IMG/VR virus record: IMGVR_UViG_2529293240_000018
Source of the DNA: a virus
Lineage: Duplodnaviria > Heunggongvirae > Uroviricota > Caudoviricetes
Direction: 5' to 3' (one strand)
DNA: 9,242 bases
Shown: piece after piece, positions 729 to 9,242 of the stretch
Numbering within the stretch: position 1 is the first letter of the stretch
How the letters are laid out: every line of letters begins with the position of its first letter
Position numbers and translations under genes: made by a program
Notes under the pieces: generated by a model
Databases searched by the model: none
Told to the model about the DNA's origin: nothing
The model's input: only the letters and a program-made list of their open reading frames with translations

Positions 729-1634
729 CTATATTTCCAGACATCTGTTATCACTTAACCCATTACAAGCCCGCTGCCGCAGATATTCCCGTGGCGAGCG
801 ATAACCCAGCGCACTATGCGGATGCCATTCGTTATAATGCTCGAACGCCTCTGCAAGGTTCTTTGCTGCCGTTAACCCGTCTGGTTTGGGCATGATACTG
901 ATGTAGTCACGCTTTATCGTTTTCACGAAGCTCTCTGCTATTCCGTTACTCTCCGGACTCCGCACCGCCGTGTTCTTCGGTTCAAGTCCCAACATCCGGG
1001 CGAACTGGCGTGTTTCATTAGCCCGGTAGCATGAACCATTATCCGTCAGCCACTCCACTGGAGACGACGGAAGATCGTTGCCGAAGCGGCGTTCCACCGC
1101 TCCCAGCATGACGTCCTGTACTGTTTCACTGTTGAAGCCGCCGGTAGTCACCGCCCAGTGCAGTGCCTCACGATCACAGCAGTCCAGCGCGAACGTGACA
1201 CGCAGTCTCTCTCCGTTATCACAGCAGAACTCGAACCCGTCAGAGCACCATCGCTGATTGCTTTCTTTCACGGCTACTCTGCCTGTATGTGCCCGTTTCG
1301 ATGGCGGTACAGCAGGTTTTCGCTCAAGCAACAGCGCATTCTGGCGCATGATCCGGTAAACACGTTTGGCATTGATCGCAGGCATACCATCAAGTTCTGC
1401 CTGTCTGCGAAGCAGCGCCCATACCCGACGATAACCATACGTGGGCAGCTCTCCGATAACATGGTGTATACGGAGAAGCACATCCGTATCATCAGTGTGA
1501 CGACTGCGGCGGCCATCCATCCAGTCATCGGTTCGTCTGAGAATGACGTGCAACTGCGCACGCGACACCCGGAGACAACGGCTGACTAAGCTTACTCCCC
1601 ATCCCCGGGCAATAAGGGCGCGTGCGCTATCCAC
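729..1634 (-). CDS. insD: IS2 OrfB (InsD), DDE transposase catalytic part, 301 aa
   Basis: Translation (GTG start) [30 protein letters not shown]... matches IS2 InsD. It overlaps the end of orfA in the -1 frame. Confidence 0.9.
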
Positions 1635-1957
1635 TTTTTTGCCCGTCCATATTCAACGGCTTCTTTGAGGAGTTCATTTTCCATCGTTTTCTTGCCGAGC
1701 AGGCGCTGGAGTTCTTTAATCTGCTTCATGGCGGCAGCAAGTTCAGAGGCAGGAACAACCTGTTCTCCGGCGGCCACAGCAGTAAGACTTCCTTCCTGGT
1801 ATTGCTTACGCCAGAGAAATAACTGGCTGGCTGCTACACCATGTTGCCGGGCAACGAGGGAGACCGTCATCCCCGGTTCAAAGCTCTGCTGAACAATTGC
1901 GATCTTTTCCTGTGTGGTACGCCGTCTGCGTTTCTCCGGCCCTAAGACATCAATCAT
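1592..1957 (-). CDS. insC: IS2 OrfA (InsC), 121 aa, HTH/leucine-zipper regulator
   Basis: Translation [56 protein letters not shown]...[20 protein letters not shown] is IS2 InsC as I recall it. Confidence 0.9.
1634..1640 (-). promoter_or_regulatory. IS2 programmed -1 ribosomal frameshift heptamer A AAA AAG in the orfA/orfB overlap
   Basis: Minus strand reads GGGCAAAAAAGTGG; in the orfA frame this is gcA AAA AAG tgg. IS3-family elements use this motif to make the OrfAB transposase (established knowledge). Confidence 0.55.
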
Positions 1958-2031
1958 CTGTTCTCCAATGACTAGTCTAAAAACTGTATTAAGACTATCA
2001 CTTAAATAAGTGATACTGGTTGTCTGGAGAT

Positions 2032-2916
2032 TCAGGGGGCCAGTCTAGCAACAGTGAACGTTGTGTTGCCATTCATATCAATACCCGGCGGAGCCTTACG
2101 CCAGATGGCCGCCGCGATATCTGCCGGGCTGCCGCCGTACACGCCAACATAAAGCGAACCGGGTGTTAATGGATACTGACTGACTCCGGCTTTTTGTTCT
2201 GTTTTTTTCGGATTATGGGTGACGTAAACATCCACCACGTTTTCCACCGTGGAGAGTATTTCACCCCGGATGGCTTCCAGAATATTCCGGGCATTACGGG
2301 CAACTGAATTACGTCGGCGGTTTTCAAAGTCCGCACGGGTTTCCTCATCGCTGCCCGGCACACCGGCACTGGCGTTAGTGACACCTGACCAGCCAGGTAT
2401 TGCCTTATAAATTTTATTCAGCGTCCCCACAGGACAGCCGACGGGGCCGGTGGACAAATTCAGAAATACCGCATCAACCTGCCCTGATGCGCCGATAGTG
2501 ACGTCTGACTGACTGACATACTTATAACCGGCCTCATCCTGCGCCATACTGCCCGCCGGGATCAGCGTGCCAACCAGCCCGGTACAGGTCGCTGTTACTG
2601 TCGTACCTGTGGCCCCGCGGCGCTCCAGGAAATAAATCCTGCCTATTGCATCCTGAAAGCGACCACTGGAAAAGTCAGGGTTGATCTGGTTAACGATATA
2701 CAGCAACTGATCGTTTTTATCCGCAATAATGGCGCTTTCGCTGGATGCAAGTTGTCCCTGCGGACTGCTCAGACTGGTACTCATGGCCCCGCCCAGCGCC
2801 GCCGAAAAATCAGCAAGCCTGCCGCTCAGAATATCCGCTTCATCCGGCACATTCAGCCCGCTATCCGAAATCTGTACAGCGGGCACTGCGGTAGAAAAAG
2901 ATTTATTTTCACTCAT
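2032..2916 (-). pseudogene. Phage baseplate J-like protein (Mu gp47 / P2 gpJ-like), C-terminally truncated at the IS2 junction
   Basis: 294-aa ORF; the last 4 codons (RLAP) and the stop come from the IS2 terminus (2032..2047). Position downstream of gpV-like and gp46-like genes, with a 4-bp start/stop overlap with the upstream gene. Internal segment ETRADFENRRRNSVARNARNILEAIRGEILSTVENVVDVYVTHNP loosely resembles the gpJ core. Family call is by synteny and weak similarity. Confidence 0.5.
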
Positions 2917-3269
2917 AGCAGTACCGTAAAAATGTCATTATTGGTATCTGTAATACGCAGCACACCTGTTACTGTCCGGGTTTGATCAGCTGTGACCAGG
3001 CAGACAGCGGCGCTCACGGTCGGCAGTTTAAGTGCTTCCTGTTGCAGAGTGGCATTCACCAGTTGTGTGCCGGGCCAGTGTCCGAGGATGCGTGGCCAGT
3101 AAGGTATGCCAGCCGTTGAGTCGTACCAGCACTCCCCCAGAAAAGTACTGCACGCACACGCCACATCCTGAGCTACCGCATGGGGATTATCAGTAATGGC
3201 AAGATTTCCGGTATCATCAAGCAGGATATCCCATGTCCCGGTGTCAAGAAGAAGTGATCGTGACTGCAT
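2913..3269 (-). CDS. Phage baseplate protein, Mu gp46-like by position and size (118 aa)
   Basis: Intact ORF between the gpV-like and J-like genes in the canonical hub-V-gp46-gp47 order; no diagnostic motif recognised. Confidence 0.4.
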   Translation of the reverse strand: MQSRSLLLDTGTWDILLDDTGNLAITDNPHAVAQDVACACSTFLGECWYDSTAGIPYWPRILGHWPGTQLVNATLQQEALKLPTVSAAVCLVTADQTRTVTGVLRITDTNNDIFTVLL

Positions 3270-3281
3270 GTTTTCTCCTGT

Positions 3282-3939
3282 TTACCGGGGTCCCTGCGTG
3301 GTTGAGCCGCCGGACTCAACGCCGCCGTGAACGTGGTTTCCAAAATCAATACCCCCGATGTTCGAACCGCCGGAAAGCCTGGACTGCCCGGTAACGTCAA
3401 GCCCCTTACTGACGGCGGTATCGCCGTTCAGCGCAATTTGTGGTGAATTAACGGTGAAGCTTTTCGGCGCATTAATCACACCCTCAGGCGCGGATATCTC
3501 CACTTTCCAGGGAGATACAATCCGTATCTGGTTGTCATCAAATACCACAAACTGGACGGGATCACCGTTGAGCACGCCACCCAGCCAGATGGCATCAGCA
3601 TAATTATGGGTACGCTTTGATCCCGGCATCGCAGCCTGACGCGTGGCTTTTACCGCACTGATATCCCGATCGCAGATGGCAAGAAAACCGATATCCCCCA
3701 CATGTGGCGGCATAATCACCGCATTACCGCCCCCCTGTAGTCGCCATACGGGAATGTTATAAATCACCTCATGTTCAACCGGGGAACCGTCTGCTGCAAC
3801 GCCCATTACCATCGGTCGGGCCTCAATAAATCCCTCTTCCACGGCTACCACCCGTCCCAGAGTGATAAACGCATGACGTCCGAGAAACTGCCGCAGCATA
3901 AAGTCCTGTGCATTGATTTCGCTGTTCACGTCTGTCGGG

Positions 3940-3959
<20 letters not shown>
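3282..3959 (-). CDS. Phage baseplate assembly protein V / central spike (Mu gp45 / P2 gpV-like), 225 aa
   Basis: C-terminal glycine-rich apex motif ...GGSNIGGIDFGNHVHGGVESGGSTTQGPR resembles the P2 gpV C-terminus (..HTHKHPGDSGGTTGSP..). Overlaps the upstream gene by 20 bp, typical of a phage morphogenesis operon. Confidence 0.65.
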
Positions 3960-5616
<1,657 letters not shown>

Positions 5617-6302: not shown

Positions 6303-6415
6303 GCTGGTTTACCATCAGGGAAATCCCCCATGTCACATAGCTTGAACTGAATCAGATCCTTCACAAGCTGCTCAGCCTTTTTAATGGCCTTCTTCTCTTT
6401 CTTCCGACGAGTCAT
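6299..6415 (-). CDS. Small lysine-rich ORF, 38 aa (below the ORF-track cutoff), possibly 5'-truncated by IS600
   Basis: ATG at 6413-6415 (minus): MTRRKKEKKAIKKAEQLVKDLIQFKLCDMGDFPDGKPA, with its TGA overlapping the ATG of the 67-aa ORF. The frame stays open upstream into the IS600 end 10 bp away, so the true N-terminus may be lost. Confidence 0.3.
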   Translation of the reverse strand: MTRRKKEKKAIKKAEQLVKDLIQFKLCDMGDFPDGKPA

Positions 6416-6489
6416 GAGAGCGCTATGAGGTAGCCTGAGTTTAACGGACACTCCTTCCTGAAATAGAATGGCATCAGAAGGAGCTAATA

Positions 6490-6792
6490 ATGAGCAGAAA
6501 AACCCAACGTTACTCTAAAGAGTTCAAAGCCGAAGCTGTCAGAACGGTTCTTGAAAATCAACTTTCGATCAGTGAAGGCGCTTCCCGATTATCCCTTCCT
6601 GAAGGCACTTTAGGACAATGGGTTACCGCCGCAAGAAAAGGGCTCGGTACTCCTGGTTCCCGCACGGTGGCTGAACTGGAATCTGAAATTCTGCAACTGC
6701 GTAAGGCGTTAAATGAAGCTCGCCTTGAGCGAGATATATTAAAAAAAGCAACAGCGTATTTTGCACAGGAGTCGCTGAAAAATACGCGTTAA
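6490..6792 (+). CDS. IS600 OrfA (HTH/leucine-zipper regulator), 100 aa
   Basis: MSRKTQRYSKEFKAEAVRTVLENQLSISEGASRLSLPEGTLGQWVTAARKG...DILKKATAYFAQESLKNTR; intact. Confidence 0.85.
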   Translation: MSRKTQRYSKEFKAEAVRTVLENQLSISEGASRLSLPEGTLGQWVTAARKGLGTPGSRTVAELESEILQLRKALNEARLERDILKKATAYFAQESLKNTR

Positions 6793-7668
6793 TCGAACAA
6801 TGGCGACAACAATTTCCCATTGAAGCGATGTGTCAGGTATTTGGTGTATCCAGGAGCGGTTATTACAACTGGGTACAGCATGAACCCTCAGACAGAAACA
6901 AAGTGATGAGCGGCTAAAACTGGAGATTAAGGTGGCACATATCCGCACTCGCGAAACATATGGAACCCGGCGGCTCCAGACGGAGCTGGCAGAGAATGGC
7001 ATCATCGTTGGTCGTGACCGACTGGCACGTCTTCGTAAGGAGCTAAGGCTACGCTGTAAGCAGAAACGCAAGTTCAGAGCGACTACGAACCCGAACCACA
7101 ATCTGCCAGTTGCGCCAAATCTGCTGAACCAGACGTTCGCTCCTACAGCACCAAATCAGGTCTGGGTGGCGGACCAAATCAGGTCTGGGTGGCGGACCTG
7201 ACGTATGTTGCCACACAGGAGGGATGGTTGTACCTCGCTGGCATCAAAGATGTTTATACGTGCGAAATTGTCGGCTACGCCATGGGAGAGCGCATGATAA
7301 AAGAGCTGACAGGTAAAGCCCTGTTTATGGCGCTCAGGAGCCAGCGCCCACCTGCCGGGCTAATCCACCACTCTGATCGAGGTTCACAGTACTGCGCATA
7401 CGATTACCGGGTCATACAGGAGCAGTCTGGTCTGAAAACATCAATGTCGCGTAAAGGTAACTGTTACGACAACGCTCCGATGGAAAGCTTCTGGGGAACG
7501 CTGAAAAATGAGAGCCTGAGCCACTATCGTTTTAATAACCGGGATGAAGCCATCTCAGTAATACGGGAATACATTGAGATTTTCTACAATCGTCAGCGTC
7601 GTCACTCTCGTCTGGGGAATATCTCCCCGGCAGCCTTCAGGGAAAAATATCATCAGATGGCTGCTTAA
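6741..7668 (+). pseudogene. IS600 OrfB transposase, disrupted by a 1-bp deletion and a 23-bp tandem duplication
   Basis: OrfB homology runs through three frames: frame 0 from the A7 slippery run at 6741-6747 (..FPIEAMCQVFGVSRSGYYNWVQHEPSDR); frame 2 from about 6896 (KQSDERLKLEIKVAHIRTRETYG...APNQVWVAD); frame 1 after the duplication (LTYVATQEGWLYLAGIKD...HSDRGSQY...[18 protein letters not shown]...). Confidence 0.8.
7151..7196 (+). repeat. Perfect 23-bp tandem duplication (2 copies of CCAAATCAGGTCTGGGTGGCGGA) inside IS600 orfB
   Basis: Read directly: 7151-7173 and 7174-7196 are identical. It duplicates the codons for PNQVWVAD and shifts the frame. Confidence 0.9.
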
Positions 7669-7691
7669 AAAAGAACAAATGGTAGTGTCCG

Positions 7692-8307
7692 CTATTGCCA
7701 GTACACCTCATAACCGCGTTCGATCGGTTTAGGGGGAAGTGGTGCCTGAACGATGACATCACACCGGCTACAGGCCAGTTTGGGACGTATGGTTTCGATA
7801 ACTTTAAAGGCGGTATTAATGATATCCAGTTGCTCTGAGATTGTTTCCCCCATTTCTTTCAGAACACCTCCACAGGCCGGGCAACTGGTTTCAGCAGGCA
7901 GAAGGCGATGTGTCTCCCGGGGAAGTTCTGCCGGCAGCGGTTTTCGTGAAGATTTTCGTCCCGGGAATTCAGGCTTACTGGCGATCGGGTTTTCTGACGG
8001 GGGACTGGTGTCAGGTGAATCTGTGACTGACGATGCATCTTCCAGAAGATTTCTGGCTGTGTTCAGCCGGTTTTCCAGTTCCGACAGTCGTTTTTCTGCC
8101 TGTCGGATCTGATTTTCAAGCTTATGACGCTTTTTCTCTGAACTCTGGCCGAACAACATACGACGCAACCTGTCGAGTTGCGCTTTTCAGCCGTTCAATT
8201 TCCTGCTCATAGCCCGCGACCTGACAGGCATACTGTCGAAGCCGACTCTGTTGCTTACGCAACATGGCTTTAAGCAGCTCAATATCATCGGGGAGTTCAT
8301 TGTTCAT
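7692..8307 (-). pseudogene. IS66-family transposase TnpC, N-terminal ~205 codons only, with an internal frameshift
   Basis: The 61-aa (8122..8307) and 158-aa (7692..8168) ORFs are two frames of one gene: MNNELPDDIELLKAMLRKQQ...EQEIERLK | AQLDRLRRMLFGQSSEKKRHKLENQ...CPACGG.... Removing one base from the T4 run at 8184-8187 (plus) rejoins them. Homology ends at 7711; the last codons come from IS600. Confidence 0.75.
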
Positions 8308-8319
8308 TCCCTTGTTTTA

Positions 8320-8669
8320 TCACGGGTTATATCCGGATGCCAGGCCGTTCTGTCCGTTTGGGATGTTGCCACGGATCCCCTCCAGTAGCATGGATAACTG
8401 AGCTGGCGTCAGGTGCACTTCCTCCCGGGTCACCGGCCAGAGAAGCGGCCCCGTTCCAGGCGTTTGGCGAACAGGCATAACCCGTCACGATCGGCCCACA
8501 GTATTTTCACCATTTTGCCACTGCGGCCCCGGAAGACGAAGATATGCCCGGAGAACGGGTCATCTTTCAGCGTGTTCTGCACCTTCGAAGCCAGGCCATT
8601 GAAGCCACAACGCATATCTGTGATGCCAGCGATGATCCAGATTTTGGTACCGGTCGGCAGCGTTATCAT
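8320..8669 (-). pseudogene. IS66-family TnpB (orf2), apparently carrying two frame-disrupting indels
   Basis: Frame 1 gives MITLPTGTKIWIIAGITDMRCGFNGLASKVQNTLKDDPFSGHIFVFRGRSGKMVKILWADRDGLCLFAKRLERGRF. A second frame continues WPVTREEVHLTPAQLSMLLEGI. A third gives DPWQHPKRTERPGIRI. Breaks are near 8436-8446 and 8366-8380; exact positions need a reference alignment. Confidence 0.6.
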
Positions 8670-9164
8670 CGGATACCCCCTTTCATTTCGCGGATTAGCG
8701 CCCGTAACAGTTCCGGAGTGAGAGGGTCAAACAGTTTTACCACACCTGATTTTAAGATGCAGCTCGCACCGTGGGACGTTTCCGGGAGCCCCCTCAGGGC
8801 GCTCATCATGCTTGTTACGCCAGAAGGGATTTGTAACTGGTCTGGTCGGCTCCGGCGTATCAGTCAGAGCCACCGGGACAGGCATGCATTCCTGTATGTC
8901 ATCATCGCTCAGTAAGCCGTCCTCGTACTGGCTTTTCCATTTAAACAGCAGGTTATTATTGATATCGTGTTCTCTGGCGATCCGGGCAACAACAGCCCCA
9001 GGCTGTAACGCCTGCTTAGCCAGACGGACCTTAAATTCACGGCTATAGCTGGTTCGCCGTTCTTTTCGCCATGAGCCTTCTCTGATTTGAGGCTCTGTTA
9101 ATTCCTTCTTTCTGTTGGCATAAAGGATGGCGTCAAGTTGAGCGAATGAAACTGAATCGGGCAA
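8667..9164 (-). pseudogene. IS66-family TnpA (orf1), with a frameshift near the C-terminus
   Basis: 145-aa ORF (8727..9164) ...RTSYSREFKVRLAKQALQPGAVVARIAREHDINNNLLFKWKSQYEDG...CELHLKI. The expected C-terminus (GVVKLFDPLTPELLRALIREMKGGIR, stop overlapping the tnpB ATG in ATGA) is in another frame; the break is near 8741-8750. Confidence 0.6.
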
Positions 9165-9242
9165 TGGCCATGCGATACCGGATGCAAGAAATCGCTGAAA
9201 AAGCGTATGTATTGTGGAATGACTGAGACCCAGACGCTGAGC

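Follow-up and report, generated by a model that had tools for sequence, protein, structure and literature searches.

An ISSfl3 remnant cut by IS600 at a draft contig end of Shigella flexneri SFJ17B, in which most of the indels are probably consensus errors

Introduction

At the right-hand end of the window (the whole stretch of 9,242 nt analysed here), all three genes of an IS66-family insertion sequence can be recognised, and all three are broken. Are these breaks the marks of an old element that has decayed in its host, or do they belong to the draft assembly from which the DNA was taken? An earlier note on this sequence took the former view: it described a heavily decayed element, truncated by IS600, and cited the uninterrupted genes nearby as grounds for regarding the lesions as real pseudogenising mutations in an old element and not as poor sequence.

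The window forms the last 9.2 kb of contig AFOW01000022.1 (hereafter contig 22; 87,313 bp) of the Shigella flexneri SFJ17B draft genome (GCA_000217895.2). The contig extends 2 nt past the window; position 9242 is thus the edge of the window and contig, and no biological truncation occurs there. As a whole, the window is a prophage remnant interrupted by four different IS elements. IS2 (718-2047) interrupts the baseplate/tail module of the prophage (2314-4443; baseplate J, sheath initiator and spike protein), which an IS911-like element cuts off at ~4441.

Results

The element is ISSfl3

A megablast search with window positions 7650-9242 against complete E. coli genomes and PLSDB plasmids returned thousands of matches annotated as IS66-like element ISSfl3 family transposase, TnpA or TnpB. 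The best of these are Shigella flexneri virulence plasmids (99.3-99.5% identity), and many Shigella pINV plasmids are at least 99.3% identical to the fragment. All of the ISSfl3 matches begin at window position 7709; the bases that precede it are those of IS600. For pairwise comparison we used an intact, annotated ISSfl3 in NZ_CP026804.1 (locus L001), in which tnpA, tnpB and tnpC are all complete and lie on the strand that matches the minus strand of the window. Against this reference, window positions 7709-9242 show 1531/1539 identities, with 7 gap bases and 1 mismatch. The window copy was further aligned with five intact ISSfl3 copies from finished genomes, each with different flanks. The element is therefore a member of the IS66 family, and specifically ISSfl3, which is known from S. 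flexneri pINV plasmids and from EIEC/Shigella chromosomes (e.g., NZ_CP026804.1 and NZ_CP007038.1) and to which the window copy is 99.5% identical over 1534 nt. It has the tnpA-tnpB-tnpC order and spacing of the reference, including the ATGA overlap of the first two genes and the gap of ~20 nt between tnpB and tnpC; the Pfam content of the retained parts also agrees.

The earlier assignment to the IS66 family is borne out by this result, and the gene order and frames had been read correctly. A programmed frameshift, or an alternative IS66 gene structure in which the frames seen here would be the proper ones, was considered and ruled out: the three ORFs are uninterrupted in every finished reference copy.

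Intact ISSfl3 is 2754 bp long, with terminal repeats GTAAGCGCCCC. Its ends were set by the five-copy alignment; a scan of one reference copy for inverted repeats did not detect the short terminal ones. The inverted repeats seen in the reference copies begin GTAAGCG..., and one chromosomal reference copy (locus L013) is flanked by an 8-bp target duplication, GGGAAGTC. Unlike these complete elements, the window copy comprises a single internal segment (Table 1) in which we count six indel events, and the DDE domain and both inverted repeats are missing from the window. The left inverted repeat and codons 1-33 of tnpA belong to element nt 1-181, past the end of the window and contig; nt 1719-2754 (1036 bp), where the DDE domain and right inverted repeat reside, are missing from this copy.

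Table 1. Coordinates of the ISSfl3 fragment, its genes and the adjoining IS600 in the window, and of the genes of the reference element.
Feature	Position	Strand	Remarks
ISSfl3 (IS66 family) fragment	7709..9242	-	element nt 182-1718 of 2754; 99.5% identity to annotated intact ISSfl3
tnpA, codon 34 to stop	8666..9242	-	frameshifted by +T in T-run 8750-8753; stop overlaps tnpB start
tnpB	8327..8669	-	343 nt vs 348 in intact copies; read as 79-aa product
tnpC, N-terminal 199 of 533 codons	7711..8307	-	leucine-zipper and zinc-finger regions only; +T frameshift
IS600 (IS3 family)	6426..7710	+	ends TGAGGTAGCC... and ...ACACCTCA; adjoins ISSfl3 nt 1718
Reference ISSfl3 genes	tnpA nt 83-757; tnpB 754-1101; tnpC 1121-2722		element coordinates

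Six indel events and no private substitution

In tnpA, the break that had been placed near 8741-8750 proves to be an additional T in a run (8750-8753) that is T3 in intact copies. As written, the gene reads 171 codons from the window edge, and the 145-aa fragment called from it matches PF01527; its stop codon and the start codon of tnpB share the ATGA at 8669-8666. Three lesions fall in tnpB: a C is lost between 8441 and 8442, 3 nt are lost at 8419-8423, and another C is lost between 8373 and 8374. The first and last of these are the breaks that the earlier note had located near 8436-8446 and 8366-8380; the 3-nt loss was not on its list. The resulting 79-aa product matches PF05717 (TnpB_IS66). 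In tnpC, the alignment confirms the exact site that had been named for an extra base, the T-run at 8184-8187, which is extended from T3 to T4.

The frameshift in tnpC divides the gene as written into a 61-aa piece and a 154/158-aa piece. With the extra T at 8184 removed, 199 residues of TnpC are followed by 5 residues of read-through into IS600 (EVYWQ), for a total of 204 aa; the earlier note had put the end of tnpC, at IS600, after about 205 codons. The fragment matches PF13007 and PF13005 only, and the intact TnpC encoded on another contig of this assembly (contig 37, below) adds PF03050 (DDE_Tnp_IS66) and PF13817. Neither of the latter two, which mark the DDE transposase domain, is found in the window copy, where TnpC ends at codon 199 of 533. 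The missing DDE domain identifies this copy as a remnant, and not as a member of another family.

A further observation from the alignment with the five intact copies is that the six indel events are accompanied by no private substitution at all in 1534 nt. The sole mismatch, at 8519 (G/C, in tnpB), is a natural polymorphism that also occurs in three of the intact copies, and none of the six indel events was found in any of the finished ISSfl3 copies examined. The description of the element as old and heavily decayed is not supported by this combination of 99.5% identity with changes that are indels only, because an old pseudogene would gather more substitutions than indels.

Truncation by IS600

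The terminal ...CCTCA of IS600 abuts ISSfl3 nt 1718, and tnpC stops exactly at the terminal CA of IS600; the two bases of this CA (7709-7710) can be assigned to either element. A break that coincides exactly with an IS600 terminus is the signature of a true insertion, and the truncation of ISSfl3 by IS600, which the earlier note had recognised, is best read as real. The adjoining element has the hallmarks of the IS3 family (TG...CA termini, imperfect inverted repeats, and orfA and orfB with a programmed frameshift) and, like IS600, the ends TGAGGT...ACCTCA. Its identity to annotated IS600 is ~97.8% overall and ~99.8% outside indels (3 substitutions in 1264 aligned nt).

Unlike annotated IS600, this copy measures 1285 bp and not 1264, has a split orfB, and is flanked by no 3-bp target duplication. 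The difference in length is due to a 23-bp tandem duplication (7150-7172/7173-7195) and two missing A's, at 6895 and 7666. The duplication, a perfect repeat of ACCAAATCAGGTCTGGGTGGCGG, lies in orfB and, together with the loss at 6895, divides that gene into pieces of 89 and 159 aa. It is missing from the IS600 of contig 37 and from two reference IS600 copies, and no other perfect short tandem duplication was found in three loci (27 kb) of the SFJ17B assembly. It may be either a slippage mutation or the mark of contig stitching within a repeat.

A search for a 3-bp target duplication around IS600 found CTA on the left (6423-6425) and TAA on the right (7711-7713). Furthermore, what adjoins IS600 on the left is not the rest of tnpC but a phage small-terminase gene, represented by its 5' end (start near 6415, minus strand). 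A phage fragment across IS600, combined with the lack of a target duplication, points to IS600-IS600 recombination, to an IS600-mediated adjacent deletion, or to a chimeric join. In the sequence of events that we envisage, an IS600 copy would have inserted in tnpC at element nt 1718/1719, and the distal 1036 bp of ISSfl3 would have been separated later, likely by IS600-IS600 recombination or by an adjacent deletion.

No single-piece match across the IS600/ISSfl3 junction was obtained among PLSDB plasmids or complete E. coli genomes, and a 40-mer that spans it is absent from the GTDB representative genomes. A candidate for the same junction on the S. boydii plasmid CP026876.1 was rejected: IS600 and ISSfl3 are 285 bp apart there.

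The truncation alone would leave this ISSfl3 unable to transpose, whatever the status of the indels. Without a catalytic domain and without one end (or either end, as far as the contig shows), the copy is an immobile remnant in the SFJ17B chromosome, and the only role left to it is that of a passive partner in homologous recombination with other copies of ISSfl3.

Indels in repeated and in unique DNA of the SFJ17B assembly

The assembly contains at least three copies of ISSfl3: that of the window on contig 22, one at the start of contig 37 (AFOW01000037.1) and one at the end of contig 15 (AFOW01000015.1). All three are at contig ends, with 5-6 indel events each. Together they show 12 distinct indel events in ~6.3 kb, compared with 1 in the five finished copies (~14 kb), and 7 of the 12 fall in runs of at least three identical bases.

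The lesions recur across contigs. Those in tnpB are common to contigs 22 and 37, which differ by 5 SNPs in tnpC; the base loss at 8373/8374 (-G at 8374) is present in all three copies; and site 8442 is deleted in two copies and changed from G to A in the third. The tnpB deletion sites lie on, or no more than 2 nt from, positions that vary among ISSfl3 copies. The two +T insertions, in the 8184 and 8750 runs, are private to contig 22.

On contig 37 (locus L006), an otherwise intact tnpC carries at ~1590-1615 an inserted C and a deleted A, 21 nt apart. The pair amounts to a compensated frameshift: the 533-aa ORF stays open, and 7 codons are rewritten. This is another sign of indel noise in the ISSfl3 copies of SFJ17B. 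Contig 15 (locus L014) reads, from ~2392 on, through the ISSfl3 right inverted repeat directly into inverted tnpA sequence, GGTTCGCCGTTCTTTTCGCC (equivalent to window 9050-9069), an arrangement which indicates that one ISSfl3 has another nested within it. The breaks of contigs 15 and 37, which stop at an identical ISSfl3 coordinate, are ~10 nt from this nested point.

The broken products appear to be confined to this assembly. An exact look-up of the 79-aa TnpB fragment returned two contigs, both from GCA_000217895.2, and in an index of 153 billion gene positions the 79-, 154-, 145- and 89-aa products were found in this assembly only. A 41-mer over two of the tnpB lesions was found neither in GTDB representative genomes nor in metagenome contigs; its intact counterpart, used as a control, occurs in 11 metagenome contigs. 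Nor did PLSDB or the complete E. coli records yield a sequence closer to the window than the intact reference. Short-read drafts of other strains collapse ISSfl3, so that the absence of lesions there is weak evidence where single-copy lesions are concerned.

The spectrum is different in unique DNA of this assembly. A comparison of 6.7 kb of Mu-like prophage DNA with two finished genomes gave 18 private substitutions, one in-frame 12-nt indel and no frameshift; the contrast between this DNA and the window ISSfl3 in the ratio of indels to substitutions is significant (Fisher p = 4e-5). Against two finished E. coli genomes, the 12-nt indel is a deletion of CGCCAGCTGGCG from the Mu-like prophage (locus L006, ~10532), where non-coding DNA separates the genes for the phage protease and for head morphogenesis. 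In the window itself, a few substitutions occur in the unique phage part (2314-4443). The only gaps there are two apparent ones of 1 nt, both a few bases at most from an end of the aligned block, where the phage sequence is cut off, and we attribute them to the alignment edges. Indels in the window are thus confined to repeated IS DNA, with none in unique DNA. Real decay of IS copies and poor resolution of repeats both predict such a distribution; it is the spectrum of changes and their recurrence across contigs that favour poor repeat resolution.

The argument that intact neighbours vouch for the lesions stands in part. The reading frames of IS2, of the IS911-like element and of the phage genes are indeed uninterrupted. 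The contrast is weakened, however, by the broken IS600 of this window, and in IS2 one A is missing from the non-coding leader, at 1985.

Discussion

We conclude that the window ends in a remnant of a catalogued element, ISSfl3, which was cut by IS600, and that most of its six indels are probably errors of the draft consensus. The explanation that we favour for the latter is that a 2011 draft assembly met, at the end of a contig, a multi-copy repeat that it did not resolve. The errors would then be of two kinds: homopolymer miscalls, and bases dropped where pooled reads of different ISSfl3 copies disagree. Deletions at variable sites in tnpB are what would be expected if reads of diverged copies had been pooled and the contested base dropped. 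In view of the contig-end position, the recurrence across contigs and the indel-only spectrum, the earlier claim that these are real pseudogenising mutations, and not poor sequence, is not secure, and we consider it more likely wrong.

The alternative, that most or all of the indels are real, would describe an ISSfl3 remnant, dead before or after IS600 hit it, that has drifted neutrally with frameshifts in its three genes. Some of the evidence does point in this direction. The deposited sequence does contain the lesions, and two of them, the +T insertions, are specific to the window copy, which means that the consensus was not merely copied from contig to contig. The single-C losses at 8373/4 and 8441/2 lie outside homopolymers. 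The adjoining IS600 carries a 23-bp tandem duplication, a type of lesion that is typical of replication slippage and that sequencing chemistry does not normally make. Unique DNA of the SFJ17B contigs is free of frameshifts, which argues that base calling was generally sound, and degenerate IS copies are numerous in Shigella genomes. We nevertheless regard real mutation on this scale as unlikely, if by no means far-fetched. Six indels with no private substitution would turn the usual spontaneous spectrum upside down: substitutions are ~10 times as frequent as indels in E. coli mutation-accumulation work, and the unique DNA of this very assembly has 18 substitutions to 1 indel. Moreover, 5-6 independent indels would be required in each of three copies on the terminal branch of one strain; the common tnpB lesions would have to be accommodated on different SNP backgrounds; and the lesions, which searches of other assemblies, plasmids and metagenome contigs did not recover, affect only copies that sit at contig ends. 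Two variants of real change (an ISSfl3 lineage in SFJ17B with a tnpB-inactivating cluster that multiplied with TnpB supplied in trans, or an indel-biased mutation of IS copies that spares unique DNA) strike us as scarcely credible.

Intermediate readings can also be framed. One SFJ17B copy of ISSfl3 might truly carry the tnpB cluster, its reads having been spread by the assembler to other contig ends, with the +T changes at 8184 and 8750 as sequencing errors. This would fit the sharing of the tnpB lesions by contigs 22 and 37, and in part by contig 15, as well as the private nature of the +T changes, both in T3 runs; the single coordinate at which contigs 37 and 15 break, beside a nested ISSfl3, shows a tangled repeat graph. 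We judge it quite improbable: the tnpB cluster occurs in no other strain searched, the true carrier copy is left unspecified, and without the reads the proposal yields the same picture as consensus error throughout. A different kind of doubt concerns the contig itself, which may be chimeric across IS600, such that the IS600/ISSfl3 junction is real somewhere and its link to the phage remnant is an assembly join marked by a 23-bp overlap. The perfect duplication (7150-7195) within a 1.26-kb repeat, the only one in 27 kb of the assembly, would be accounted for in this way, as would the lack of a target duplication around IS600 and the uniqueness to SFJ17B of the 89-aa ORF that the duplication creates. 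However, target duplications are also lost in genuine IS-IS recombination, which is frequent in Shigella, and one duplication is no proof of a stitching error; we consider such a join improbable. It would in any case affect linkage only, and leave the identity of the ISSfl3 fragment unchanged. Consensus error in a multi-copy repeat thus remains the reading that we prefer for the indels.

TnpC stubs of similar length are found in other strains. S. flexneri 2457T has an N-terminal stub of 190 aa, named 'ISSfl3 orfC' (AAP17437.1), and serotype 1a strains have a 174-aa form. These proteins end ...CDVIGTTSS and ...INTAGNAANLLI, as opposed to ...PIERGYEVYWQ in the window, and they are without the T-run frameshift. 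We considered the 2457T-type truncated proteins as the same locus and rejected this, since the break points differ; the stubs are therefore products of independent events. Their existence in other S. flexneri strains suggests that such remnants are commonplace and arise independently; in Shigella, it is routine for IS copies to be truncated or nested.

Both elements, ISSfl3 and IS600, have been catalogued, and the finding carries little biological weight: this is an ordinary dead ISSfl3 fragment cut by IS600. Frameshifts in a multi-copy IS at the ends of draft contigs are no proof of old pseudogenes without read-level support, and a copy that differs by indels alone, with no private substitution, gives a useful warning.
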